Source of the DNA: Candidatus Fraserbacteria bacterium
GTDB lineage: Bacteria; Bipolaricaulota; Bipolaricaulia; RBG-16-55-9
Reading direction: 5' to 3'
NCBI GenBank assembly: GCA_037443265.1
Contig: JBBIOR010000032.1
Location: forward strand, 1-14,279
DNA: 14,279 nt
The notes beneath the pieces were generated by a model. The model ran no database searches and was not told the origin of the DNA. It saw only the letters and a program-made list of their open reading frames with translations. Positions 2,451-13,965 of the stretch are shown piece by piece; position 1 is the stretch's first letter; the number at the start of each line of letters is the position of its first letter. The position numbers and the translations under genes are program-made.

Positions 2451-2915
2451 GTGATCTACTCGAATGCTTGTGAATATGCGATTCGGGCATTGACCCATCT
2501 GGCCATGCATCCACAAGAGAAGCTGTGCAAGGAGATTGCAGCCGGTGAGAGGGTCCCCCGCTATTTCTTGGGCAAGATCTTGCAGAGCTTAGTGCGGGCG
2601 GGGCTGCTGCAATCAACGCCGGGGCGCAAGGGTGGCTTCACACTGGCTCGAGCGCCTGAACACATCACACTCTATGATATTAAAGCAGCCATAGACGGCA
2701 CTCGGGATCTCTGTGAATGCGCCATCGGGTTAGAGCAATGCTCTGATGAGACCCCTTGCCCGCTGCATGAGATCTGGAAACCTATCCGACTGCAGCTCAT
2801 GAACTATCTACAGAGAACTACGCTAGCGGAGCTGGCTGCAGCTGTACAGAAGAAAAGGGTTCATAGGGGCAAAGGCCGACGTGGGGCATGTCGAGCTAAC
2901 GGGCTGCAGCCCTGA
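2451..2915 (+). CDS. Rrf2 family transcriptional regulator (likely Fe-S binding)
   Basis: YSNACEYAIRAL, EIA…VPRYFLGKILQSLVRAGLLQSTPGRKGGFTLAR.PE.ITLYDI. C-terminal C-x6-C-x5-C-x2-H (CAIGLEQCSDETPCPLH) resembles the IscR 3Cys/1His ligand set. Confidence 0.95.
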   Translation: MIYSNACEYAIRALTHLAMHPQEKLCKEIAAGERVPRYFLGKILQSLVRAGLLQSTPGRKGGFTLARAPEHITLYDIKAAIDGTRDLCECAIGLEQCSDETPCPLHEIWKPIRLQLMNYLQRTTLAELAAAVQKKRVHRGKGRRGACRANGLQP

Positions 2916-2947
2916 TGACCGTTAGAGTTCTTCAAGGAGGACAAGCC

Positions 2948-4072
2948 ATGGCCAATGTGCGCAGAATTGCTCAGATGACGCGGCGGTCCTTCCTCAAATG
3001 GGGTCTGGCTATAAGCACGCTGGCCGGCCTCAGTGGGGGTGGATATGCCCCCCTTGTGGTAAGAGGGGAGGGATCTTTTGGGCGGGTCGGCGATGTAGTC
3101 GACTTCGCCCTGGAAAGCAGAGAGTGGCCGGGAGACTTCGGGTATGTGACCTTCCGCCTACAGCGCGGCTTCTACGACTGCCAACAGACCTTCTTCATCC
3201 GGACAGATTGCTCGGATCGATCGTTTGCAGAAGAGCAGGGGCTCCGATTCGTTCCCCGCTTAAGGCAAGCCCTTGGTGTTCAAGGGGTCGTTGGGGACTT
3301 GTATCTCTTCAAGGAGGATATAGTTGGAGACCGGGGCTACCGGCCTTTACCGGTGTTGAGCACCGTCCCCGGTCAGCCCGACTACAGCCCCCTCTTTAGG
3401 GTCCACTTCATTACCGAGGCGAAGTTCCCTGAACTTTTGGTCTCGGTGAAGGCGATCGAGGCGAGCGTACGAGTCGGCGAAGCCAAGGTCGAGACGACGG
3501 ACATCGTGGTCAATTATCCCGTGGTCCGGTGGCCTGTGATGACCCCCTCGCCCGAGGGGACCGGCGGCTACGTTGAGCTACCTCACGACACCACACTTGA
3601 AGAATATCTGGGAGGCGGGCAGCTGATCAGGCCGGTTGACCTGCTGAAGCAGACGGTCACCTTCAAGCTCCAGAAGTGTTTCCCCAATTTCCGCTACATC
3701 GTCACGGACGTCTCCATGGCCGATCCGGCGGCGAAGATGAACATCGCCTACTCACCCGGCTTAGCCCGGCTGTGGGAGGCGCGCAAGGCGCTCGCGCGGG
3801 TGTTTGTCTTCGGCAACGGAATCCCCGGTGGAGGTCCTATGGGCTTCCAGTCGAGCATCATGGACCCCAAGGTGACGAGCAATTTCTGGAGCCCGCTCTG
3901 GGAGCACTTCACCGTGCTATGGCAGGACCCGGCCAAGGCCGTGCTGATCACCGACGAGCGGGAGCTTCGCCGCAGGCTGGATCGAGGGGAGCTGGAGCGC
4001 TTCATCGGGACGCCCGCGACCCATCCCCAGGGCTTCGTAGTCAACTGCCCGATCCCGGTGGTGGAAGGGTGA
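2948..4072 (+). CDS. Tat-exported protein of unknown function with two 'SPL(W/F)…VVN(C/Y)P' repeat domains (resembles DUF7482-type proteins)
   Basis: AGGAGG RBS at 2935-2940 before ATG 2948. Twin-arginine motif TRRSFLK followed by an h-region. Internal duplication PDYSPLFRVHF…VVNYPVV / NFWSPLWEHF…VVNCPIP, plus a GGPMGFQ motif. The DUF label is from memory and unverified. Confidence 0.8.
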   Translation: MANVRRIAQMTRRSFLKWGLAISTLAGLSGGGYAPLVVRGEGSFGRVGDVVDFALESREWPGDFGYVTFRLQRGFYDCQQTFFIRTDCSDRSFAEEQGLRFVPRLRQALGVQGVVGDLYLFKEDIVGDRGYRPLPVLSTVPGQPDYSPLFRVHFITEAKFPELLVSVKAIEASVRVGEAKVETTDIVVNYPVVRWPVMTPSPEGTGGYVELPHDTTLEEYLGGGQLIRPVDLLKQTVTFKLQKCFPNFRYIVTDVSMADPAAKMNIAYSPGLARLWEARKALARVFVFGNGIPGGGPMGFQSSIMDPKVTSNFWSPLWEHFTVLWQDPAKAVLITDERELRRRLDRGELERFIGTPATHPQGFVVNCPIPVVEG

Positions 4073-4157
4073 GAACAGGGAGGTGATTAGCCGCTCAAAG
4101 GCAGTTCTAAGATCTACATAGCACTATATATAAAGGCAAGGGAGAGGTGACGCAAAA

Positions 4158-4802
4158 ATGAAACTCACGTTCAGAGTTGTCCAGTTGTTGCTGACCGTAG
4201 CGTTGATTGGCATCACAGGTGTCGTCGTGAGCAGCTTACAGCCGACGGAACGCGCGACTGCGGCCCAGCTATCGCCGACCTGCACGGCGAATGCTCCTGT
4301 CAGGGAGTTCTTCGTCGTCACGGGCGAATGGGACACCACACTCAAAGGCCATCTGAAGGATCGTGGGAAAGATCGCCAGAAGGATGAGAAACTGGAGCGC
4401 TACACCTTCGATCCCGCTACCATCATCGTTCACGTAGGGGATTGTGTGGTACTACGCATTCATGACCTCAAGGGAAGCCACCACAACGTGACCATTGAGG
4501 GTACAGGGATTGACTCTGCAGGCGCTCCGATCATCGACGATAGCGGCACAGCGATTGGCACAGCGCGCGCACGACCTAATCCAAACGCTGCCTTTGAAGG
4601 TCCTGCCGATCTAAAAGACGGTGAGTTCGCCCGCGGAGAACAGATCGAGCTCAGGTTCCAAGCGGATCAGCCTGGGACCTTCCGGATCATCTGTGAGGTC
4701 CACACCTTCATTGGCTCCAACGGCGAACTCAAGGGATACGATGACTCGGGCAAACCCATGGGTGGCCCGATGGTCGGTTATCTCGTCGTGTTGCCAAGAT
4801 GA
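4158..4802 (+). CDS. Secreted cupredoxin-domain protein with an extended copper-ligand loop
   Basis: N-terminal signal/anchor. FDPATIIVHVGDCVVLRI, H(H)NVTIEG, F.ADQPGTFRIIC-EV-H…M-VGYLVV give the cupredoxin fold with His/Cys/His/Met ligands. GAGGTGA RBS upstream. Confidence 0.88.
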   Translation: MKLTFRVVQLLLTVALIGITGVVVSSLQPTERATAAQLSPTCTANAPVREFFVVTGEWDTTLKGHLKDRGKDRQKDEKLERYTFDPATIIVHVGDCVVLRIHDLKGSHHNVTIEGTGIDSAGAPIIDDSGTAIGTARARPNPNAAFEGPADLKDGEFARGEQIELRFQADQPGTFRIICEVHTFIGSNGELKGYDDSGKPMGGPMVGYLVVLPR

Positions 4803-5413
4803 TGCCCGGGCATGGAGGTGGGAAGCCTGAGTTGCAGAAGGTGGCTAGGCTTCCCGCCTTCCTTCTTCGATTGAGTCAATTTAAGAAAACTCTCGCCATC
4901 GGCGTAGTCCTCTCGATCGTGATGGCCTTGTTCATCTGGATGCTGCAGCTCGTGGCAGAATATCCCGGTGTGGAGCGCACTTTCATCCTTCCCTCCTGGT
5001 TCACAGGCAGTGCGGAATCTCCTGTTCAGCCTTCACCACAACACGCGCAAGAGACTCTTGAAAAGAACGAGCTAGGTCAATCAGGGGGGTACACGGTCAT
5101 CAGGGGCACAGAAGTGGAGATCAACGAGAGGGAGTACAAGCTGGAGCCGAATCAGATCCGGATAGAAGTCAAGTCGCTCCCAGCCACGATCACCTTCGTG
5201 CTCCACAACCAGGGCCGCTTCTCCCACGACTTCGAGGTCAAAGGCCACGGGATCGACGCCAAAGCCCCCAAGTTCGGCCCCGGGCGCACCCAAGAGTTTG
5301 AGGTGACCTTCGGGGAGCCGGGCGAGTACGAGATCCTCTGCCCGTTGAGCAACCATGCCGAACGCGGCATGCGGGGGACCCTCGTCGTCAAGGGGGAGCA
5401 CGATGCCCGTTGA
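4799..5413 (+). CDS. Membrane-anchored type-1 (blue) copper protein / cupredoxin
   Basis: TM helix at aa ~32-52. EYKLEPNQIRI, FVLHNQG..SHDF, PGEYEILCPLSNHAERGMRGTLVV (C-x4-H-x4-M). ATGA overlap with the upstream gene. Confidence 0.92.
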   Translation: MMPGHGGGKPELQKVARLPAFLLRLSQFKKTLAIGVVLSIVMALFIWMLQLVAEYPGVERTFILPSWFTGSAESPVQPSPQHAQETLEKNELGQSGGYTVIRGTEVEINEREYKLEPNQIRIEVKSLPATITFVLHNQGRFSHDFEVKGHGIDAKAPKFGPGRTQEFEVTFGEPGEYEILCPLSNHAERGMRGTLVVKGEHDAR

Positions 5414-6812
5414 CATCCCAGGACTGGGCGCCCGCAACGCCCTGTGGCTTGTGGCCCAGCTCCACCTCTTCTTTGCGGCCTTTGTGCTCGGCGCGCCCAT
5501 TTTTATTGTTATCAGCGAGTATCTAGGCCTGCGTACCCAAGATCAAAGATACGAGCGCCTCGCGCAAGAGACGATGAAGGTCGTGGCCATTGCCTATTCG
5601 CTCACAGCCATCTTCGGCGTGCTCTTCGCCTTCGTGCTCATGGGGCCCTATCAGCCATTGACGAATTATCTATTTAAGACGCTCTATCCCCTCTGGACCC
5701 TATACGGGCTCTTTATTCTTTTAGAAACCGTCTGCATGTATCTCTATTGGTACACCTGGGGGCCTCTGAGCAAAACACCAGGGCGCAAGTGGGCGCACAT
5801 CAGCCTAGGCGTTCTTTTGAACATTTTGGGTACCATCGTGATGCTCCTCATGAACGCCGTGGGCGGCTTCATGAATACCCCTCCCAAAGAGATCGAAGCG
5901 GCAAGCCTATGGGAGATGGTCAACAACGCCGCCTGGTGGCCGCTGAATCTGCATCGCTTTCTCGGCAACGTGACCTTCGGGGGGTTTGTGGTCGCGCTCT
6001 TTGCGGCCTTTATGTTTCTGACGTCCCCAAAAGAAGAGGACAGAAAATTCTACGACTGGATGGGCTATATTGGGAATTTGATCGGCGTGGGCACGCTCAT
6101 GACGATGCCCCTGGCGGGCTATATTCTCTCCAAAGAACTGTTTCTTTACGACGCGCAGCTGGCAACGTTTATGATGGCCGACAAGCTCTCGGGGTATTTT
6201 GTGGTACAGGGGCTTCTGGTCGTGTTGCTCTTTCTGGGGGCCAATTTTTATATGTGGCTCTCCATGCAGCGCATCGAGGGGGGTCTTCGTTTTGAGCCGC
6301 ACATGAAGGCCATCTTCGCTGTGCTGTTGGCCGGGGGCATCATCTGGGTGGTGCCGCAGAACTTCTTTCCCGATCTTTTGGCCAAGCCCCCGCCGGGGGT
6401 GAGCGAGCAGGCTTTAATCCTGCCAGAGCGTTTTGCGTTCTTGGGTTTGATGGTGGCCAAAGCCTTGGCCGTGACAGCCATTATTATCATGACGTTTGTG
6501 ACGTATCTGCTCTATCGGCGGGCGCGCGCCACGGGCAAAATTTTATGGGGCCGCATCGACCCGATGGCCCAGTACGTTTTGATCTTCATCCCCGCCGTGG
6601 CCGTCTATTTGATGGGGCTGATGGGCGCGATCCGTGAACTTACTCGCATGGACTATCACATTTACGGCCTAATCAAAGACGTGACCCCTTACTGGTATAC
6701 CGTCACGTTGGGGCATTCGTCCATTATGGTGGCGATCACGACGATATTATTTTTCGTGCTGCAGGCGTTCATCTTTTGGGTTGGGTTTGTGATGGGGAAG
6801 GTTTATGAGTGA
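5403..6812 (+). CDS. Cytochrome bd-like oxidase subunit I (CydA fold; resembles the Nitrospira-type/OR-N bd-like oxidases)
   Basis: ATG 5403 after an AAGGGGGAG RBS; polytopic membrane protein. QLHLFFAAFVLG (E. coli CydA H19 equivalent), LLET (E107 equivalent), GFMNTP, NLHRFLGN (H186 equivalent), YDWMGYIGN, GLMVAK (possible M393 equivalent), GAIRELTR (E445/R448 equivalent). No recognisable Q-loop QP.KLAA.E motif. Confidence 0.85.
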   Translation: MPVDIPGLGARNALWLVAQLHLFFAAFVLGAPIFIVISEYLGLRTQDQRYERLAQETMKVVAIAYSLTAIFGVLFAFVLMGPYQPLTNYLFKTLYPLWTLYGLFILLETVCMYLYWYTWGPLSKTPGRKWAHISLGVLLNILGTIVMLLMNAVGGFMNTPPKEIEAASLWEMVNNAAWWPLNLHRFLGNVTFGGFVVALFAAFMFLTSPKEEDRKFYDWMGYIGNLIGVGTLMTMPLAGYILSKELFLYDAQLATFMMADKLSGYFVVQGLLVVLLFLGANFYMWLSMQRIEGGLRFEPHMKAIFAVLLAGGIIWVVPQNFFPDLLAKPPPGVSEQALILPERFAFLGLMVAKALAVTAIIIMTFVTYLLYRRARATGKILWGRIDPMAQYVLIFIPAVAVYLMGLMGAIRELTRMDYHIYGLIKDVTPYWYTVTLGHSSIMVAITTILFFVLQAFIFWVGFVMGKVYE

Positions 6813-7527
6813 TCCCGAAAAGAAGAGGAGCCTCTGGCAGCGCATCAAGGGCCCTGTCCTCTTTGCTGGGGTCAGTTTAGCAGTGATTTGGGGCTTGCTG
6901 CCTCTGGTGCCCCTGAGCTGGGGGGTTCACTTTGGCGTTGCTTATCTCATCTTTTTCAGCCTGGCCGTGCTCAGCGCGGCTCTCTTTTTCGTGCTGCTTA
7001 ACTGGGGGCCTATTGGAAAACCCAACTCCCCCTTGATGACGTTTGCCAGCATCCTGCTCGTCTATGTCGCTACCGTGGGAGGATTGGTGGCCTTCGGGCT
7101 CTGGTATTACCCCCAGTTTGAAATTCCCAAGCCCGTTGTTGAAAAAGAAAAGCCAGAGGAGACCGCAGCGGAGGAGCGGGGTAAAGAAGTCTTCTTGAGC
7201 CCCACGGTCGGCTGCTTTGCGTGTCATTCGATTGAAGCTTTAGGGATCAGAGGCGGGACGAGAGGGCCGGATCTTTCAGAGGTGGGCAAGCAGGCAGAAG
7301 TGCGCCAGCCAGGCATCTCTGCAGAAGATTATCTTAGAGAATCTATCGTGAACCCGTGGGCTTGCTTCACGCCGTTACCCGGCGGCGAACTCGTAGAATG
7401 CCAGCCTACGGCTGATCCTGCGAAGACGTATCCGCCACTCATGCCCCCCGGCTTCGGGGAACGTCTGAGCGAAGAGCAGCTGAATAATCTTATCGCGTTC
7501 TTGAAGAGCCTGAAAGGAGTGCCATGA
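6805..7527 (+). CDS. Membrane-bound monoheme c-type cytochrome (3 N-terminal TM helices)
   Basis: RGKEVF…GCFACHSI (CxxCH), GPDL, YLRESIVNP, distal Met in LMPP, LSEEQLNNLIAFLKSL. Overlaps the oxidase gene stop. Confidence 0.93.
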   Translation: MSDPEKKRSLWQRIKGPVLFAGVSLAVIWGLLPLVPLSWGVHFGVAYLIFFSLAVLSAALFFVLLNWGPIGKPNSPLMTFASILLVYVATVGGLVAFGLWYYPQFEIPKPVVEKEKPEETAAEERGKEVFLSPTVGCFACHSIEALGIRGGTRGPDLSEVGKQAEVRQPGISAEDYLRESIVNPWACFTPLPGGELVECQPTADPAKTYPPLMPPGFGERLSEEQLNNLIAFLKSLKGVP

Positions 7528-7961
7528 AACAGTCTAAAGGACTTGCAACTTTTGGACTTGAGCCTGTAAAAAGCGACATTGCCTGGGGGTGGGTCTTTTG
7601 GGGCTACGGGATCGCCCTGCTGGGAACGCTGATTGCAGGGGGGTTCGGGCTCTTCGCGATGAATAGGGGGATGTGGTGGGTGGCCAACTGGGGCCTAATT
7701 TTTCTGTTCATTGGGGGTTTTATAGCGGGCTTTTTCGCGAAAACTGCTGAGCCCTTGAATGGCGCCTTTATGGCCGTCTTCTACTTTGTGACGGCGACTC
7801 TAATTGTTTTTATCGGGGAATTTCTGGGCGTCTTGCCCGACCCGCTGCCCGGCCTGCCGCGCGGCGACTCGACGTTCTTCTTCGTCTGGCCGCTGGGGCA
7901 GCTGGTGGCCGCGACGCTGGGGGCGGTCTTGGGAGGATGGCTCTCCGCTAAATGGAGGTGA
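7524..7961 (+). CDS. Small 4-TM Gly-rich membrane protein of unknown function
   Basis: Four hydrophobic helices. ATGA coupling to the cytochrome c gene and GGAG RBS. Confidence 0.8.
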   Translation: MKQSKGLATFGLEPVKSDIAWGWVFWGYGIALLGTLIAGGFGLFAMNRGMWWVANWGLIFLFIGGFIAGFFAKTAEPLNGAFMAVFYFVTATLIVFIGEFLGVLPDPLPGLPRGDSTFFFVWPLGQLVAATLGAVLGGWLSAKWR

Positions 7962-7968
7962 GTGCGAG

Positions 7969-8862
7969 ATGAAGACATATCGGGAGATTGCGGGCGATGC
8001 CGGGTCGGATATTCTCGGTCAGGTAAAAGAACAACAGGCGCGCCTGCAAGCGCGCCTGGCGCAGATTACACACACAATTGCAGTCATGAGCGGCAAGGGC
8101 GGCGTGGGCAAAAGCGTCATTACAACGAACATGGCTGCTGCCTTGGCGATGCTGGGCCATCAAGTGGGCGTTCTGGATGCGGACATCAACGGGCCTTCTG
8201 TTGCCAAGATGTTTGGAGTGCGGGGTCAGACCCTCAAGGTTGGCAAAAACGGAGTCGTCCCTGTCCTTGGACCCTTGGGGATCAAAATCATCTCCATGGA
8301 TCTCCTGCTGTCCCGAGATGAGGCGCCGGTGGTCTGGGATGCCCCAGCGCAGCAAGATCCCTTCGTCTGGCGTGGCACGATAGAAGTTAGCACGCTTAGA
8401 GAATTTCTTGCCGATACGGACTGGGGAGAATTAGATTTTCTTTTGATCGATCTCCCTCCGGGCCCAGAGCGGTTGCCCAATCTCCCTGGCCTGCTTCCCG
8501 TATTGCACACAATCGTCGTGACCATCCCCTCGGAGGTCGCGCAGCTCACGGTGAAGAGATCCATCGCTTTAGCCCAGCAGCTGAAGGCAAAGCTTCTGGG
8601 ACTGATAGAGAACATGGCGGGCTATCTCTGCCGGAAGTGCGGCGCGTTAGGTGAGCTTTTCCCCAGCAGTGGGGAGGAAACCGTGAATGTCCTGGGCGTG
8701 CCCCTCTTGGGGAAGATCCCCTTCGATCCGCGCATCGCCCGTTGCTCAGATCGGGGCATCCCTTTCGTCCTCGAGCATAAAGACACAACAGCCGGAGAGG
8801 CGTTCGCCCAGATTGCCCAAAAGATCAAAAGAAACATCACTTTTGGGGAGGGTGAGCGATGA
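7969..8862 (+). CDS. mrp: Mrp/NBP35/ApbC family P-loop ATPase (Fe-S cluster carrier)
   Basis: GGAGGTG RBS before ATG 7969. Deviant Walker A SGKGGVGKS, LDADINGPS, ISMDLL, WRG, WGELDFLLIDLPPG, VVTIP, GLIENM..Y.CRKC, LGKIPFDP. Confidence 0.95.
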   Translation: MKTYREIAGDAGSDILGQVKEQQARLQARLAQITHTIAVMSGKGGVGKSVITTNMAAALAMLGHQVGVLDADINGPSVAKMFGVRGQTLKVGKNGVVPVLGPLGIKIISMDLLLSRDEAPVVWDAPAQQDPFVWRGTIEVSTLREFLADTDWGELDFLLIDLPPGPERLPNLPGLLPVLHTIVVTIPSEVAQLTVKRSIALAQQLKAKLLGLIENMAGYLCRKCGALGELFPSSGEETVNVLGVPLLGKIPFDPRIARCSDRGIPFVLEHKDTTAGEAFAQIAQKIKRNITFGEGER

Positions 8863-9251
8863 AGTTCTTATGTGTCGCGTGCGATGAGGCCATGAAGTAC
8901 GCGGAGGCCCAAGGGCCGGAGGCGGGCTCGTTGTCTGTTGTTTTTCACTGTCCCCACTGTGGCTATAGAGTGGCTCTGTTGACCAATCCATGGGAGACCC
9001 AATTGGTTCGCAGCTTGGGAGTTGTCATCGGTGGGCGGACGGTTCCCTCCGAGCCTTTGGAGTTAGTACGGACGACCCTGGCTGACAGCAAGCTTCTGTG
9101 GACGGCCGAGGCCGAGGAGCGCTTGGAGCGAGTGCCCGAGTTTGCGCGGGCCATGGCCCGCCAAAGCATCGAACGCTATGCCCGAGAGCAAGGCTACCAC
9201 GAGATCACTCCCCACGTGATGGATGAAGCCAGAGCCAAGCTCGGGCTGTAA
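8859..9251 (+). CDS. CxxC…CxxC (Zn-ribbon/metal-binding) protein with a C-terminal PCP_red (protochlorophyllide reductase C-terminal-like) domain
   Basis: CVAC…CPHC, then TNPWETQLVRSLGV.IGG, then WTAEAEERLERVPEFARAMARQSIERYAREQGYHEITPHVMDEAR (W-x2-EA…L.+VP.F.R…IE..A…G…IT pattern). ATGA overlap with mrp. Confidence 0.85.
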   Translation: MKFLCVACDEAMKYAEAQGPEAGSLSVVFHCPHCGYRVALLTNPWETQLVRSLGVVIGGRTVPSEPLELVRTTLADSKLLWTAEAEERLERVPEFARAMARQSIERYAREQGYHEITPHVMDEARAKLGL

Positions 9252-9254
9252 ACG

Positions 9255-10523
9255 ATGAGAAACAATTATCTCCCTAGAGTCGTCTGCTGGAACGTGACAC
9301 AAGCGTGTAATTTGCGCTGTCCCCATTGCTACTTGGCCGCAGGCACCCATGCTGCGCGCGAGCTTTCCACAGAAGAGGGCTTCCAGCTCATCAACCAGTT
9401 ACGTGAGCTTGGGACTCAGCTGCTCATACTCACGGGCGGCGAGCCCCTGCTGCGTCGCGATCTCTTCACGCTTGCCCGCCATGCCGCGGAGCGTGACCTG
9501 ATGGTCGTGCTAGGCAGCAATGGGACACTGCTTGACGAGAATGCTGTCAAAAGGCTTAAAGGGAGCGGTGTGCAGGGGGTAGGGATCAGCTTAGATTCCC
9601 TCGACCCGGAGAAGCACGATACCTTCCGAGGGCTCCAGGGCGCTTGGGAGAAGGCTGTCCGCGCCATTGACATGTGTGTGAGTCAGAGTTTAGAAGTCGC
9701 TGTGCAAACGAGCGTCCTGCCCATGAACTATGACGAAGTCCCACAAATGATCGAGCTTGCCTATGAGGAAGGTGCGCGGGCTTTTAACGCTTACTTTCTG
9801 GTCTGTACGGGCCGCGGCGAGCGGCTCACGGACATCACCCCCCAGCAGTACGAGGCGCTTCTTCATGATTTGATAGACGCACAAGTGCACTACGCAAAGC
9901 ACGGCTTCCTCGTGCGGGCCAAGTGCGCTCCGCACGTCAAGCGCTTGGCCTATGAACGCTTGAGCTTACACAGCGACAACTCGCCAGGGGCCGTGGGGCT
10001 TCTGGCCAGTGCGGGCTGCCCAGCAGGCACCAGCTATTTAAGAATCGGGCCCGAAGGCGACGTCACCCCCTGTCCTTATTTGCCCTTCGTGCTGGGTAAC
10101 GTCCGGCAGCAGGCATTGCATGAGATTTGGGAGGGGCAGCAGGGCCGCAGCCTCACTTTGCTGAAGCTGCGGGCTTTGGAGCTTCAAGGCCGCTGCGGGG
10201 TCTGTGAGTTCAAAAATCTCTGCGTCGGTTGTCGCGCGCGGGCTTTTGCTTTGACTGGAAATCTGCTCGGTGAAGATCCGTGGTGCACCTATCAGCCCAG
10301 GTGCCGACAGCCGTTCGCCCTTACGTGGACTCCCGAGGCACTGACGCGAATTGAAGAAATCCCTCCGTTCCTTCGGGAGCGCGTCAAGCAGGGTGTGGAA
10401 GCGTACGCGCGGGCGCGCGGCATTCGCCAAATCACCCCAGCGCTCTTGGCAGAGTTGCGAGTGGGCTCCTTCGGGAAAAGAGCAGCCACACAAGGGTCGC
10501 CGAGAAAGGATGAGCATGTATAA
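9255..10523 (+). CDS. Radical SAM/SPASM protein, AhbD/NirJ-like, fused to a C-terminal PCP_red domain
   Basis: WNVTQACNLRCPHCY (CxxxCxxC), ELST.E, LTGGEPLLR, SNGTL, ISLDS…HD.FRG..GAW, FLVCTGRG, KCAPH. SPASM Cys: CPAG, CPY, CGVC…C.GCRARA, DPWC. Tail WTPEALTRIEEIPPFLRERVK..VEAYARARG…IT. Confidence 0.93.
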   Translation: MRNNYLPRVVCWNVTQACNLRCPHCYLAAGTHAARELSTEEGFQLINQLRELGTQLLILTGGEPLLRRDLFTLARHAAERDLMVVLGSNGTLLDENAVKRLKGSGVQGVGISLDSLDPEKHDTFRGLQGAWEKAVRAIDMCVSQSLEVAVQTSVLPMNYDEVPQMIELAYEEGARAFNAYFLVCTGRGERLTDITPQQYEALLHDLIDAQVHYAKHGFLVRAKCAPHVKRLAYERLSLHSDNSPGAVGLLASAGCPAGTSYLRIGPEGDVTPCPYLPFVLGNVRQQALHEIWEGQQGRSLTLLKLRALELQGRCGVCEFKNLCVGCRARAFALTGNLLGEDPWCTYQPRCRQPFALTWTPEALTRIEEIPPFLRERVKQGVEAYARARGIRQITPALLAELRVGSFGKRAATQGSPRKDEHV

Positions 10524-11559
10524 GCGCATTCTGGTCGCGATCGACAACTCCAAATATGCCGTGCAGGCATCTGAGCTGGCCGTAGAACTGGCACAGAATT
10601 TCCAAGCACACCTCACCGGCGTCCACGTGACTAATGCCGGACTACACACATATGCTTTCCGTCGGCTCGAGGGAACCCTTCCCGTCCCGTATCAAAGCGA
10701 AGAAGTTTTGCAGCAACAACGAGAAATTCACGAAGATCTCATCCGTCGAGGACTCACGTTGATCAGCGATTCTTATTTTGAGCCGTTGCGGCAGCGAGCA
10801 CAAGCTGCAGGCATCCCTTGTGAGACCAAAGTTTTAGAGGGCCGGCACTACGAGGTGTTATCCGGAGAGATTACAGAGGGGGCCTACGATCTGGCTGCCT
10901 TCGGGCACTTGGGTCTTGGGGCATGCGAGCGCTCCATGCTCGGCGGCGTGGTGGAGCGGGTGGCTCGCCGCGTCAGAAAAGATCTTTGGGTTATCAAAGA
11001 GGCAAGGGCTCTGGAAGACGGGAAAATTTTGGTCGCTGTGGACGGGTCTGAATACTCCTTCTGGGCTCTGCGCAAGGCGATCGTCTTGGCGAAAAGATTC
11101 CAAGCTCAGCTACACGCTGTGCACGTCTTCGACCCGGATTTCCATCGTACGATCTTTCAAGAGCTGGTGGGTGTGCTCACCGAAAGAGCCGCAGAGGTTT
11201 TCGATTTCGAGGGTCAACAAGAGTTGCACGACAGAGTCATCGACAAGGGGCTCGAGCAGGTGGGGCAGCGCGTGCTACGTAGCTGTAAGCTAGCAGCAGA
11301 GCACAGTGGCATTCCCATTGCGGTGACGTTGCTTAAGGGCAAATTCTTCAAAAAGATCGTTGAGGCAACCGAAATCCTAGATCCCTCATTGCTGGTCATG
11401 GGCCGATTTGGCCGACACCGAGTCGAATCTTCAGATTTAGGGAGTACTGCAGAGAACGTGCTGCGCCTTGCGCCTTGTAGCGTCTTAATTGTGAGTACCG
11501 ACGTGCCTGAGACAATGAAGCACTTCAAGACTCCAACAGCCGTTGGAGCTGGGGGGTGA
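10516..11559 (+). CDS. Tandem universal stress protein (two USP domains, each with a His-containing helical insert)
   Basis: MYKRILVAIDNS…G(HL)GLG…LGGVVERVARR, then KILVAVDGSEYS…LLVMGRFG…LGSTAENVLRLAPCSVLIV. AAAGGA RBS favours ATG 10516 (alternative 10510). Confidence 0.93.
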   Translation: MYKRILVAIDNSKYAVQASELAVELAQNFQAHLTGVHVTNAGLHTYAFRRLEGTLPVPYQSEEVLQQQREIHEDLIRRGLTLISDSYFEPLRQRAQAAGIPCETKVLEGRHYEVLSGEITEGAYDLAAFGHLGLGACERSMLGGVVERVARRVRKDLWVIKEARALEDGKILVAVDGSEYSFWALRKAIVLAKRFQAQLHAVHVFDPDFHRTIFQELVGVLTERAAEVFDFEGQQELHDRVIDKGLEQVGQRVLRSCKLAAEHSGIPIAVTLLKGKFFKKIVEATEILDPSLLVMGRFGRHRVESSDLGSTAENVLRLAPCSVLIVSTDVPETMKHFKTPTAVGAGG

Positions 11560-11692
11560 GCTTGCTTGGCTGGCTCTTGTGCCGGCTGCTATACTCGCTT
11601 CTGGTCGCCGATGGGAGCGGCACGCACCCTGATCGATTTTGGAGCCACGCTCCAAGGGCCAACGGGAAGAACGAACGGGGGGAAGGAGAGCG

Positions 11693-12244
11693 ATGGGCCT
11701 CTACGTTTATGTGCTTTTGGGGTTGCTGGGCTTCGTCTGGAGCTTGCGGTACCCTCCGCCGCCGGCGGGTGAGGTTCGGACGGTGACCGTAGAGCTGTTC
11801 GAGTGGGGGATCGCGCTCGACCCGACGCCTTTGCCGGCCGGTCCGATCCGCTTTCGGGTGATCAATAGGGGCAGCATCGGCCATGCCTTTGCCTTGGCCC
11901 TCGTCGGGTCGGAGCGGGCGACTCGGGTGTTCGGACCCGGGCAGACTGAGATGGTGGACGCGGACCTCCTTCCGGGGAGGTATGCGATTTGGTGTCCCGT
12001 CCCTGGTCACCGAGAGCGGGGCATGGAGGCGGAGCTGCGGGTCTTGGCCGTCCCGCCCTCGGCCGGGAAGCGGGTGCTCCGGCTGAAGCGCTTTGACCGC
12101 AACGGGAACGATCTCCTCGACGATCCAGAGTTCTTTGCGATCATCGATGCCTGGGTCGCTAGGGAACTCGACGATGCCACCTTCTTCCTGGCCATCGACC
12201 TGTGGGTCGGTCGACGGCCGATCTCCTCGGTGGCCGGAATGTGA
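11693..12244 (+). CDS. Exported cupredoxin (type-1 Cu) with a C-terminal EF-hand/dockerin-like domain
   Basis: AAGGAG RBS before ATG 11693; hydrophobic N-terminus. FRVINRGSIGHAF, PGRYAIWCPVPGHRERGMEAELRV (C-x4-H-x4-M). Tail FDRNGNDLLDDPEFFAIIDAW…LDDATFFLAIDLW. Confidence 0.9.
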   Translation: MGLYVYVLLGLLGFVWSLRYPPPPAGEVRTVTVELFEWGIALDPTPLPAGPIRFRVINRGSIGHAFALALVGSERATRVFGPGQTEMVDADLLPGRYAIWCPVPGHRERGMEAELRVLAVPPSAGKRVLRLKRFDRNGNDLLDDPEFFAIIDAWVARELDDATFFLAIDLWVGRRPISSVAGM

Positions 12245-12321: not shown

Positions 12322-13148
12322 ACTTTCGCTATTGCCACAAGTCTTTCACGGAGTCAAGATGGCCTCCCCTTCCGGCTTGGGGACGGAGACAGGGGAGAGG
12401 AACGGGAAGACCCACAGAACAGAAGCAACCGTCCGAGGGCTGCCAGCCACCCCTTCACCTCCGTGGCCGTCTGGATCAACCTCCATCCCCATGCGTGCCG
12501 CACCTCTCCCAAGTTGGGCTGCTGCCCCACCAACTACCGACCTCAGCGGGTCAGAGCCGCCAATACATAGGCCAACAGCACCAGCTCCACCCAGCGCTCC
12601 AGACTCCGCTTCCCCCGGCAGCGGCAGTCCCCTAACCCAAAGTGCTCCTTGAGCGTCTTGAACATCGTCTCAATCCCCCAACGCCGCTTGAGGTGCCGCA
12701 GGATCTGGCTGCGGTTCCAGGAGAGTTCCGTGCAGATCACCGTGCGACGTCCCCGACCCCGCCCGCGAGGGACGATCCGCAGAGGGATCCCCAGGCCTTG
12801 CAGGTGCGCGATCGTCTCCTCCGAGACCTCCCCGGCCCGCCTCCCATCGGAGAGCCGGCGATTCTTCCGCACCCAACCCACCACGGGGAATCCGCGTTCC
12901 CGGGCTGCCTCCAGCACCGGAGCGCAGCAGTAGGTACTGTCGACCAACACCACCACCCGGCTGCCCGGCGGGGGCTCAAAGGTCCGGATCATCTCCGCTG
13001 CCAGCTCGGTCCGCTTGCGGAAGGCCTCCTCCTCCAAGAAGCGCTCGTTGACGTAGCCCCGCCAATCCCAGGGCACCACTTCCCAACCGGTCTCACCGAC
13101 GGACTCAACTTCCCCACCAAACGCCTCAGAAGTCAGGAGCTTGCCCAC
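12322..13148 (-). mobile_element. Degenerate IS701-like (DDE, IS4 superfamily) insertion sequence remnant
   Basis: Contains the transposase fragment. A possible distal end GCGAAAGT (minus strand) lies at 12322-12329. Boundaries are approximate and no paired TIR or target duplication was seen. Confidence 0.6.
12543..13148 (-). pseudogene. Truncated IS701-family transposase (C-terminal half only)
   Basis: PWDWRGY…FRKRTELAAEMI, VVVLVDSTY (second D), RKNR, RRWGIETMFKTLKEHFGLGDCRCR…ERWVELVLLAY (E motif). The N-terminal half is absent. The frame is broken by TGA (12543) and TAG (12534). Confidence 0.85.
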
Positions 13149-13250
13149 CCTGGTCTATGAGTCTCTAGCGCAAGTAGACATTAGAGTAAGGATTCGTGGG
13201 GCGGGAGGCTCGGATGTCCTTGACTCTGGGGATCGAATGACGGCACCCTC

Positions 13251-13739
13251 TTACGTAGACTCCGCCAGCTTTGCCAAGTGTTCCCTAACCCTCTTGAGCA
13301 GCTCCCCAGGCGGCACCACCTGAAGCGGTGCCGGAGGATCCGGGTAGTCGCTCGTGTTGAAGGTCACCAGATAATGACAACCGTTCAGCAGGGCCGCCGC
13401 CAGCACCGGGAGGTCTTTCGCCTGGGCCCGACCGGACCATGGCTTCAGGGCTGACGCCGGAGGATCCGGTACCCCTCTCAACGCTGCCTGTACCAGCGCC
13501 TGAAAGACCGGCAGAGCCTGCGGGAGCTTCTTCTTCAGGTTCCGCTCCACCTCCACCCGCACATAGGGACAGATGAGCCCGTCAATCAGGGTGAGCTCTG
13601 CAAGCTGCAGCAAGATGTAGCTGGCCGAGGAGTGGGTCTTCGAGGCCGAACCGGCAATGAGCACGTCGGCATCGAAGAAGACGCGCAGCTTACCGGGAGC
13701 GGCCGTAGCGCTCTCGGTAGAGTCGTCGGCGCTGCTCAT
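13251..13739 (-). CDS. PIN-domain toxin (VapC-like RNase) of a type II TA pair
   Basis: LRVFFDADVLIAG, EVERNL, KDLPVLAAAL, YLVTFNTSDY (acidic PIN tetrad). Overlaps the antitoxin 3' end. GAGG RBS before ATG 13739. Confidence 0.9.
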   Translation of the reverse strand: MSSADDSTESATAAPGKLRVFFDADVLIAGSASKTHSSASYILLQLAELTLIDGLICPYVRVEVERNLKKKLPQALPVFQALVQAALRGVPDPPASALKPWSGRAQAKDLPVLAAALLNGCHYLVTFNTSDYPDPPAPLQVVPPGELLKRVREHLAKLAEST

Positions 13740-13965
13740 CTAAGCCCTCGAGCAGGTCTTCTACGCTAAGCCCGGCAGCCTGGCGGAGTCGCTGGATCTC
13801 GCCCACCAGCTTGGGGACCAGGGGTACCTTCGGAGCCAGGATAAAGATTCCTTCGAGATCCAAGAGGGTAAGGGGCTCCCCCTCTTCCAAGCGATATTTC
13901 TTGCGGAGCTCCACGGGCAGGGTGAGAGTTCCACGGTTACGCAGCGTGAGCGTCTTGGTGTTCAT
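13690..13965 (-). CDS. AbrB/MazE/SpoVT-family antitoxin
   Basis: LRNRGTLTLPVELRKKYRLEEGE.L…EGIFILAP swapped-hairpin motif. Lies directly upstream of the PIN gene. Confidence 0.92.
   Translation of the reverse strand: MNTKTLTLRNRGTLTLPVELRKKYRLEEGEPLTLLDLEGIFILAPKVPLVPKLVGEIQRLRQAAGLSVEDLLEGLDEQRRRLYRERYGRSR

Follow-up and report, generated by a model that had tools for sequence, protein, structure and literature searches.

A compact OR-N-type cytochrome bd-like operon with cupredoxins, a membrane cytochrome c and a candidate heme module in Candidatus Fraserbacteria

The 14,279-nucleotide stretch analyzed here (the window) is an entire contig (JBBIOR010000032.1) of a Candidatus Fraserbacteria genome (GCA_037443265.1; 1.69 Mb, 88% complete), and it carries a block of nine tightly packed genes at 4158-11559, on the forward strand, that includes a divergent relative of the cytochrome bd subunit CydA. 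On balance, we favor the view that this block is a self-contained, horizontally spread operon for a quinol-independent bd-like oxygen reductase of the OR-N type together with a dedicated heme module. As the best reading of its sequence, we infer that the enzyme is a microaerobic cupredoxin/cytochrome c:O2 oxidoreductase. Since 2010 it has been a question how oxygen is reduced in Nitrospira and in related nitrite and manganese oxidizers that lack a heme-copper oxidase, and the 7.4-kb block appears to pack together a minimal enzyme, its likely electron donors and its likely maturase.

Conservation and spread of the operon

An open reading frame (ORF) check placed the ORFs of the window at the same coordinates as a preliminary description of this DNA, which had reported that every junction in the block overlaps or is separated by 7 bp or less. 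The gaps between the nine genes, in order, are -4, -11, -8, -4, +7, -4, +3 and -8 bp, with ATGA overlaps at 4799, 7524 and 8859, in agreement with that report. The gene upstream, for a Tat-exported protein, ends 85 bp before the block, and a third cupredoxin gene begins 133 bp downstream of it. Recurrence of this order of genes across other phyla indicates that the tight packing goes beyond chance.

Gene order was surveyed in 83 loci that carry the compact form of the oxidase, some of them near-duplicates, with counts taken only from loci with enough flanking DNA; L055, a duplicate of L007, and the loci of a sister clade were left out of the counts. Upstream of the oxidase gene (5403-6812), cupredoxin 2 (4799-5413) was present in 65 of 66 loci and cupredoxin 1 (4158-4802) in 48 of 52, while downstream a membrane cytochrome c (6805-7527) was found in 59 of 61 and a four-helix membrane protein (4-TM; 7524-7961) in 43 of 43. 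A two-domain USP-family protein (10516-11559) and a radical SAM protein (9255-10523) were each present in 21 of 24 loci, and HemY, above cut-off, ended the operon in 11 of 24. Two further genes of the window are optional: a CxxC...CxxC zinc-ribbon protein with a PCP_red domain (8859-9251; PF08369, E 3e-18; Cys5/8/31/34) occurred in 14 of 24 loci and an Mrp/NBP35-family (Mrp/NUBPL) iron-sulfur (Fe-S) carrier ATPase (7969-8862; PF10609, E 2e-74) in 9 of 24. Family calls on the window proteins used Pfam and NCBIfam cut-offs. We conclude that the core consists of two cupredoxins, the oxidase, the membrane cytochrome c, the 4-helix protein, the USP-family protein and the radical SAM protein, and the neighborhood survey thus bears out the earlier suggestion that cupredoxin, cytochrome c, 4-TM, USP and radical SAM genes form a conserved set.

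Bipolaricaulota-type genomes share the core with Betaproteobacteria, Chloroflexota and Acidobacteria. The named hosts are Betaproteobacteria, Sulfuricaulis, Acidobacteria, Chloroflexota, a Deinococcus-labeled bin and Fraserbacteria, and the closest named relatives of the oxidase gene are in Fraserbacteria (92%) and Bipolaricaulia (89%) records. A close copy of the oxidase was found in only 3 of 61 genomes sampled from the window's own class, and the betaproteobacterial copies are 84-87% identical to it; this rarity, taken with this identity, points to horizontal spread of the operon. Near-identical copies (85%) in Betaproteobacteria and Sulfuricaulis further suggest that the operon can be expressed whole. 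In the closest relative (L002:11576-16530), the operon is interrupted by genes for a YncE-like beta-propeller, one more cupredoxin and a protein with BNR repeats, and SCO genes lie beside the operon in L015, L081 and L091.

In a sister compact clade (46-50% identity), the cytochrome c is present, cupredoxin and 4-TM matches are absent, and molybdenum (Mo) enzymes are adjacent. At L109:6660-12594, the compact bd-like gene comes directly after the arsenite oxidase genes aioBA and is accompanied by a diheme cytochrome c gene, so that a single operon may hold a chain from arsenite to oxygen; we count this periplasmic donor enzyme ahead of a sister compact form in favor of the oxidase reading. In L018, L098, L101, L107 and L108, the compact bd-like gene lies in other Mo-oxidoreductase operons with TorD and cytochromes c; the Mo enzymes of these five loci have PhsA-like or Fdh-like best matches, all below cut-off.

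Fold and family placement of the oxidase subunit

The Pfam match of the 469-residue subunit (Cyt_bd_oxida_I) is confined to its N-terminal half (residues 11-246). An AlphaFold2 (AF2) model built on a 56-row alignment (predicted local distance difference test score [pLDDT] 86) has 11 long transmembrane helices. The top ten structural matches of the model are all CydA chains (Z 27.7-30.5; 14-17% identity), with a root-mean-square deviation of 3.4-3.9 over 341-358 residues to CydA structures. Membrane subunits of ACIII and Psr come next in the ranking (Z 13.6-19.4). The cytochrome bd superfamily is marked by a CydA fold with its first four helices and by His19; the subunit has this fold, and its His21 aligns with the His of 5doq. 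A gap-free profile alignment to Geobacillus thermodenitrificans CydA puts Tyr101 on Glu101 and Glu108 on Glu108. Seven residues (His21, Tyr101, Glu108, His132, His184, Met350 and Arg415) are invariant in 56 of 56 homologs, and His419 is kept in 49 of 56. By alignment, His184 and Met350 match the heme b558 pair His186/Met393, and Glu412 matches Glu445; the published accounts of the Escherichia coli and G. thermodenitrificans enzymes have His186/Met393 binding heme b558 and describe a function for Glu445 (PMC6853902). The Lys252/Glu257 motif of canonical CydA is replaced in the subunit and its homologs, as seen in the residue table and the profile alignment, and two helices stand in place of the Q-loop, so the quinol site that marks the qOR family is absent. 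No CxxCH motif is present either, and the cytochrome c is a separate gene, which differs from the fused heme c of OR-C. Because His300 and His438 are not conserved, we see no case for an extra three-His copper site in the compact clade. These data agree with the initial view of the protein as a divergent bd-like subunit that has a CydA fold and has lost the quinol site. Set beside canonical CydAB of E. coli and G. thermodenitrificans, as far as those enzymes are described in PMC6853902 and PMC13189123, the subunit shares the fold (Z ~30) and equivalents of His186/Met393, His19, Glu107 and Glu445, but lacks the Q-loop, Lys252/Glu257, Glu99 and CydB and has two helices more.

The families qOR, OR-C and OR-N of the bd superfamily were defined by Murali, Gennis and Hemp (bioRxiv 10.1101/2021.01.16.426971); the subfamily hidden Markov models (HMMs) and operon details of that work lie in its supplements, which were not used here and could bear on novelty. 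We therefore assigned OR-N1 and OR-N2 labels to Nitrospira rows by synteny with PMC6606698 and PMC12342949 rather than by the published HMMs. The 567-residue Nitrospira paralog precedes Rieske and cytochrome b genes, as does bd-like_1 of PMC6606698, and the 685-residue paralog precedes two cytochromes c and an EB_dh protein, as does bd-like_2/NIDE0901 of the same source; in PMC12342949 these two correspond to OR-N1 and OR-N2, respectively.

The preliminary description had recommended placing the subunit in a CydA-superfamily phylogeny, and a 43-row tree (LG+G4, bootstrap/SH-aLRT; 38 of 81 rows left out, including the long-branch L120) put it in OR-N. The clade of the window (100/100) lies inside an OR-N1/N2 lineage (100/100) that is marked by Tyr101. 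A 100/99 branch sets the N2-like rows apart from the window clade, which is therefore not NIDE0901-like, and the clade is sister to the N1-like set at only 80/86, with a shared Asp260, without being nested within it. The subunit resembles OR-N in lacking the quinol site, in having heme c unfused and in grouping with Nitrospirota bd-like proteins. It has 11 helices in the model, whereas OR-N1/N2 have about 14, and the long forms carry an additional helix at the N terminus and, behind the Met350 helix, ~100-190 inserted residues. The 'a' subunits of OR-N3/4/5 have both proton-channel glutamates and a paired cydA paralog; the window subunit differs from them in having Tyr101 in 56 of 56 homologs, in being encoded by a single gene and in branching apart from the rows with Glu101 and a paired gene. 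When 1.84 billion representatives were searched with a profile, most of the proteins recovered were long ones of the Nitrospirota/Nitrospinota type. We place the subunit in OR-N as already published, where it forms a compact clade with 11 helices close to OR-N1. The idea that the subunit and the three-helix cytochrome c together represent a split 14-helix OR-N2 was rejected, since the extra helices of the long forms are N-terminal and internal.

Partner subunit, electron donors and proposed path

The 4-TM protein has 180 homologs and falls in no named Pfam family. In a three-chain model with the oxidase and the cytochrome c, it docked on the oxidase with a score, which covers the 4-TM chain only, of 0.75 compared with 0.01 for the best of three controls; this level was reached by 116 of 157 solved complexes and by 2 of 215 mismatched pairs, counts that apply only approximately to a three-chain job run on custom alignments. 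Runs agreed in at least 87% of contacts, the partner pLDDT was at least 77, and the modeled contacts lie on oxidase residues 343-377 (the Met350 helix), 237-244 and 296-297. The model lends support to a structural role for the 4-TM protein, as a subunit close to the heme where electrons enter, without demonstrating it. Homology of the protein to the long-form insert was unsupported (hmmsearch; hhalign probability 0.35%), as was a role as a CydB replacement, the modeled contact being on residues 237-377, away from the first four helices. For the 4-TM and Tat proteins, the ESM Atlas gave nothing beyond leads below 0.9. In several Chloroflexota copies (L013:11039-11344, L093:12272-12532, L016, L071, L072 and L087), an extra small membrane gene sits between the cytochrome c and 4-TM genes.

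Cupredoxin 1, which is exported, has weak Pfam matches below cut-off and a candidate type-1 copper site (His109/Cys179/His182/Met205) whose ligand loop is long, and its four ligand residues are conserved in at least 92% of 36 aligned homologs. Cupredoxin 2, which is membrane-anchored, matches PF13473 and PF00127 above cut-off and has a type-1 copper motif (His143/Cys181/His186/Met191) with conserved ligands, so both proteins appear to carry the type-1 His/Cys/His/Met ligand set. The monoheme cytochrome c (PF00034) has three N-terminal helices, a CxxCH motif at 137-141 and a Met213 that is invariant in the alignment, and domains homologous to it are fused to some long relatives of the oxidase. 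Type-1 copper proteins and His/Met cytochromes c are high-potential carriers, which favors O2 or NO as the acceptor unless electron flow is driven in reverse.

In the path that we propose, electrons would arrive from the periplasm, passing from soluble cupredoxin 1 to anchored cupredoxin 2 and on to the membrane cytochrome c, and would then enter a low-spin heme (His184/Met350) and reach a di-heme site (His21, Glu412) where O2 would be reduced with cytoplasmic protons delivered via Glu108/His132. The helical hairpin would stand in for the Q-loop, the 4-helix protein would brace the Met350 helix, and copper would reside in the carriers rather than in the active site. The USP and radical SAM proteins would supply or tailor the heme that this enzyme lineage needs under low oxygen, with the Mrp and PCP_red proteins and, in some hosts, HemY assisting the pair.

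A NO reductase or NO/O2 detoxifier fed by the same carriers, here under an Fe-S Rrf2 sensor, would also be compatible with a high-potential donor chain, although we consider it very unlikely. High-spin di-heme sites can bind NO, the window has an Rrf2 regulator with Fe-S ligands and an upstream palindrome, and the hosts already have heme-copper oxidases. Against this, no copper nitrite reductase scored above cut-off in the host genome (best 146.7 of 296.3 bits), Rrf2 is found in only 1 of 36 loci, and no nir, nor or nos gene was recognized beside the operon in the scanned neighbors, a selected subset.

A candidate heme maturation pair

The operon radical SAM/SPASM protein, with its C-terminal PCP_red domain, belongs to the AhbD/NirJ group and is a candidate heme synthase or heme-tailoring enzyme. 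It falls below all NCBIfam cut-offs, with the best scores to NirJ2 (TIGR04055; 310 of 500 bits), AhbD (TIGR04545; 301 of 500, homologs 248-313) and TIGR04053 (277 of 395). CxxxCxxC and SPASM cysteines are common to the window enzyme and these three families, from which it differs in scoring below their cut-offs, in its C-terminal PCP_red domain, in its fixed pairing with a His-rich USP and in forming a clade apart from hemE-linked paralogs. The USP-family protein (PF00582 twice), its putative partner, has six His (37, 44, 72, 210, 238 and 301) conserved among 51 homologs, which would suit heme or metal binding.

Co-occurrence was scored in 80 of 121 Nitrospirota genomes, comprising 41 of the 42 with a bd-like match and 39 of the 79 without; G167, with a weak match, and 40 negatives were left out. 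The USP ortholog was found in 40 of 41 positive versus 1 of 39 negative genomes, and the radical SAM ortholog (E 1e-90 or better) in 39 of 41 positives, with one further copy truncated at the edge of a contig, versus 1 of 39 negatives, the single negative exception (G093) carrying both. A weaker radical SAM paralog (33-38% identity, without the PCP_red tail) occurred in 20 of 39 negative and in 10 positive genomes, formed a separate clade from the operon enzyme and adjoined a hemE-like gene, recognized by an N-terminal motif, in 6 of 8 fetched copies. The operon radical SAM and the housekeeping AhbD-like gene are thus separate paralogs. In Dehalococcoidia, the USP was present in 5 of 5 bd-like-positive versus 1 of 196 negative genomes, and among the window's own relatives in the same 3 of 61 genomes as the close oxidase copy. 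USP and radical SAM genes were adjacent or nearly so in 10 of 12 Nitrospirota regions fetched; they are unlinked to the oxidases in Nitrospira and linked to long forms in L148, L149, L160, L161 and L171. The pair looks like a dedicated maturation module of OR-N1/N2-type oxidases. The maturation module suggested in the preliminary description is supported for the USP/radical SAM pair; the Mrp and zinc-finger/PCP_red genes are optional.

Long oxidases of the OR-N2-like kind likewise have USP-PCP_red, radical SAM-PCP_red and HemY genes at their flanks in betaproteobacterial L147-L149 and Nitrospirota L160, L161 and L171, and in L149 the long oxidase and the pair lie beside a Mo enzyme of Nar/Nxr size.

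It is quite possible, though we do not favor it, that the radical SAM is just a back-up AhbD, making heme b without oxygen, and that the USP and Mrp genes are co-regulated general stress genes. NirJ2 and AhbD are its closest NCBIfam models, the host depends in other respects on hemE, hemH and a gene of the ChdC/HemQ family, so that an anaerobic substitute would be useful, and HemY together with AhbD would make up a coproporphyrin route to heme b. However, the operon enzyme coexists with the hemE-linked AhbD-like paralog in 10 Nitrospirota genomes and with a TIGR04053 radical SAM in the window host, and it is nearly absent where OR-N1/N2 are absent. Since the host carries ChdC/HemQ-family, hemE, hemH and TIGR04053 genes, its ordinary supply of heme b does not obviously depend on the operon copy. 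A spare AhbD would touch the accessory genes only and is compatible with the oxidase reading.

A more specific proposal, which we regard as rather doubtful, is a single-CydA cytochrome c/cupredoxin oxidase in which Tyr101 takes the place of Glu99 in a copper-free active site, the 4-helix protein is a novel subunit, and the USP and radical SAM proteins produce a modified heme that differs from both b and d. On that view, these two proteins would also be the maturase so far missing for the enzyme presumed to act as terminal oxidase throughout Nitrospira. We found no paper that ties bd-like oxidases to USP/radical SAM or NirJ, and subscription papers or supplements may hold one. The co-occurrence also predicts that expression of an OR-N subunit without the USP and radical SAM may fail, and it names the genes to add.

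Alternatives to a single-subunit oxygen reductase

Several observations weigh against the operon encoding an oxygen reductase of this kind. OR-N enzymes are presumed to use cytochrome c and none has been assayed according to PMC10839748 and PMC12342949, so O2 reduction rests on homology, and related long forms occur in anaerobic anammox bacteria (PMC3578206). Glu99, which is described as important for the active-site heme and as facing the O2-binding heme in E. coli (PMC6853902), is replaced by Tyr101 in 56 of 56 homologs, and Glu412 is kept in 50 of 56 and is Ser in the other 6, betaproteobacterial copies among them. USP or radical SAM is missing from four loci despite enough downstream DNA, and because genomes within a phylum are kin and not independent, the co-occurrence counts are patterns rather than statistics. 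A long OR-N2-like form is encoded elsewhere in 6 of 17 hosts and, in a separate sample of 201 Dehalococcoidia, in all 4 genomes with the compact clade, which makes a two-paralog enzyme possible. Finally, a heme-copper-family gene scored above cut-off in 17 of 19 hosts, so the operon is not needed as a sole oxidase; with such genes already in the hosts, it is best read as an extra low-oxygen branch. The window host itself has a heme-copper oxidase operon and genes for cytochrome c maturation. The Glu412 position (the Glu445 equivalent) is Ser in the 85%-identical betaproteobacterial copies and in long forms, a change seen more than once on the tree.

The chief doubt about the oxidase reading concerns Tyr101, which may act in catalysis or may be a ligand that blocks the site. 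If Tyr101 ligates the heme and closes the O2 site, the operon would encode no oxidase and would instead be an ACIII-like electron-transfer module between the quinone pool and periplasmic cytochrome c and cupredoxins, which we consider unlikely. In G. thermodenitrificans, the distance between Glu101 and the heme iron is 2.1 Å (PMC6853902), and a Tyr there could ligate; a quinone-linked role has been proposed in print for the bd-like protein of the NXR cluster (PMC3578206, PMC6606698), the fold is related to the ACIII/Psr membrane subunits and sister forms lie beside Mo oxidoreductases. On the other hand, the canonical quinol residues are gone and no new site was identified, His21 and the proton-path residues Glu108 and His132 are invariant, and the host already has three cytochrome b genes and an NrfD-type complex.

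No cydB lies in the operon and none was found in the 88%-complete host genome, where 5403-6812 is the only cydA-family gene found. In 7 of 19 host genomes of the compact clade, all counted from incomplete metagenome-assembled genomes (MAGs), cydB is present and always beside canonical cydA, and the system can thus be called CydB-less, as first proposed. The subunit could pair with an OR-N2 paralog from another locus to form a CydAA' heterodimer, since dimers of OR-N1 and OR-N2 have been proposed for Nitrospira (PMC12342949, PMC10839748) and the long forms noted above would provide the partner. We consider such a heterodimer the least probable of these alternatives: among the 17 host genomes in which the compact clade was detected, 11 have no second non-canonical cydA-family gene, including the window host (88%) and G001 (94%), and the long forms have their own cytochromes and in several cases their own USP or radical SAM copy.

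Relation to published systems

The preliminary description called the system undescribed, which is too strong, because OR-N is a named family and clusters of a bd-like protein with cupredoxins and cytochrome c are in print (PMC3578206). In that source, the bd-like oxidase encoded in the NXR cluster (Nitrospina, Kuenenia, Nitrospira) is accompanied, like that of the window, by a pair of cupredoxin-like proteins, by cytochromes c and by a putative zinc-finger protein, and a quinone-linked role is given as an alternative. The oxidase there has 14 helices and belongs to the N2-like clade. Neither NXR nor another Mo enzyme is encoded in the window, and USP, radical SAM and the 4-helix protein are not in the gene list given there. 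Bd-like 'terminal oxidase' clusters TO_1-4 have likewise been described for Manganitrophus (bioRxiv 10.1101/2021.11.15.468770).

Like OR-N1/N2 as outlined by Murali and coworkers, the window subunit has the CydA fold and the His19 equivalent, lacks a quinol site and CydB and has neighbors that offer other donors. It differs in having 11 helices against 14, in forming its own clade (100/100) and in sharing its operon with a dedicated 4-helix protein and two cupredoxins, and it is the only oxidase gene in its operon, as their account has it for N2 rather than N1. Nitrospira bd-like_1 and bd-like_2 (PMC6606698, PMC12342949) share the Tyr101 lineage and a following membrane cytochrome c, and their hosts carry the USP/radical SAM pair; bd-like_2/NIDE0901, which is OR-N2 and a proposed terminal oxidase, corresponds to TO_1 of Ca. 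Manganitrophus in the account cited above. In contrast, the window operon has no Rieske/cytochrome b or NxrC-like gene, position 319 is Gln in its subunit and His in the long forms, and its maturation genes are in the operon and not unlinked as in Nitrospira.

What is new here is the compact form with one oxidase subunit, the 4-helix partner and the link to a maturase, the OR-N family being known already. Together, these three make the long-standing question of oxygen reduction testable, in a self-contained system built on a cytochrome bd relative that is not known to have been purified.

Regulatory and neighboring genes

The Rrf2-family regulator (2451-2915; PF02082, E 1e-33) has Cys88/90/97/103 and His106, scores below the IscR and NsrR cut-offs and may be an Fe-S sensor. 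A near-perfect palindrome just 5' of its start (2418-2439; 10-bp arms, 2-bp spacer, one mismatch) is a candidate Rrf2 operator, its core is kept in L002, and the genome has only one other site within 4 mismatches. A 59%-identical Rrf2 paralog elsewhere in the host genome (L029:6456-8002; 15455-17001 of another contig) overlaps a TIGR04053 radical SAM gene, and its upstream region shares a short motif with the window palindrome.

The Tat-exported DUF7482 protein (2948-4072; PF24298, E 1e-59), whose likely start at 2948 follows a strong ribosome-binding site, has 205 homologs, a weak TAT signal match and an AF2 model with pLDDT 90.5. Foldseek gave no match to this fold in the PDB at E 0.001, and a VIA wide search returned 0 of 48,161 chains at Z 2; the fold is possibly undescribed, although lack of a match does not prove a new fold and the whole protein was compared, not single domains. 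Its halves show a repeated secondary-structure pattern, with conserved His320, Cys244, Cys367 and several Trp, and a literature search found no paper on DUF7482. Both genes had been counted as parts of the system, the Tat protein as a member of the electron chain, yet each is present in only 1 of 36 related loci and we place both outside the core, the regulator being lineage-specific; a two-component or OmpR-type gene is present in 32 of 36.

The third cupredoxin (11693-12244; His64/Cys101/His106/Met111) had also been included. It is probably outside the operon, being separated from the block by the 133-bp gap and not found at this position in L002 or L028, and it has a higher G+C content (GC); its C-terminal domain is repeated in other ORFs of the host genome. 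A promoter-like consensus match lies ahead of it at 11566-11595, in a promoter/terminator scan of the window that was at chance level overall (4 promoter-like consensus sites versus 4.1 expected), and an Rfam search of the window gave no match.

Further upstream, an ordinary SOS-associated peptidase (SRAP) gene lies at 325-1008. The gene at 1364-2323, for a membrane-anchored protein that has a DNA-binding domain of the OmpR type and lacks a receiver domain, is syntenic with the operon in L002 and L028 and has paralogs on three other contigs of the host genome. Downstream of the operon, at 12543-13965 on the reverse strand, are an IS701/IS4-type transposase fragment and a PIN and AbrB/MazE pair, in DNA of higher GC.

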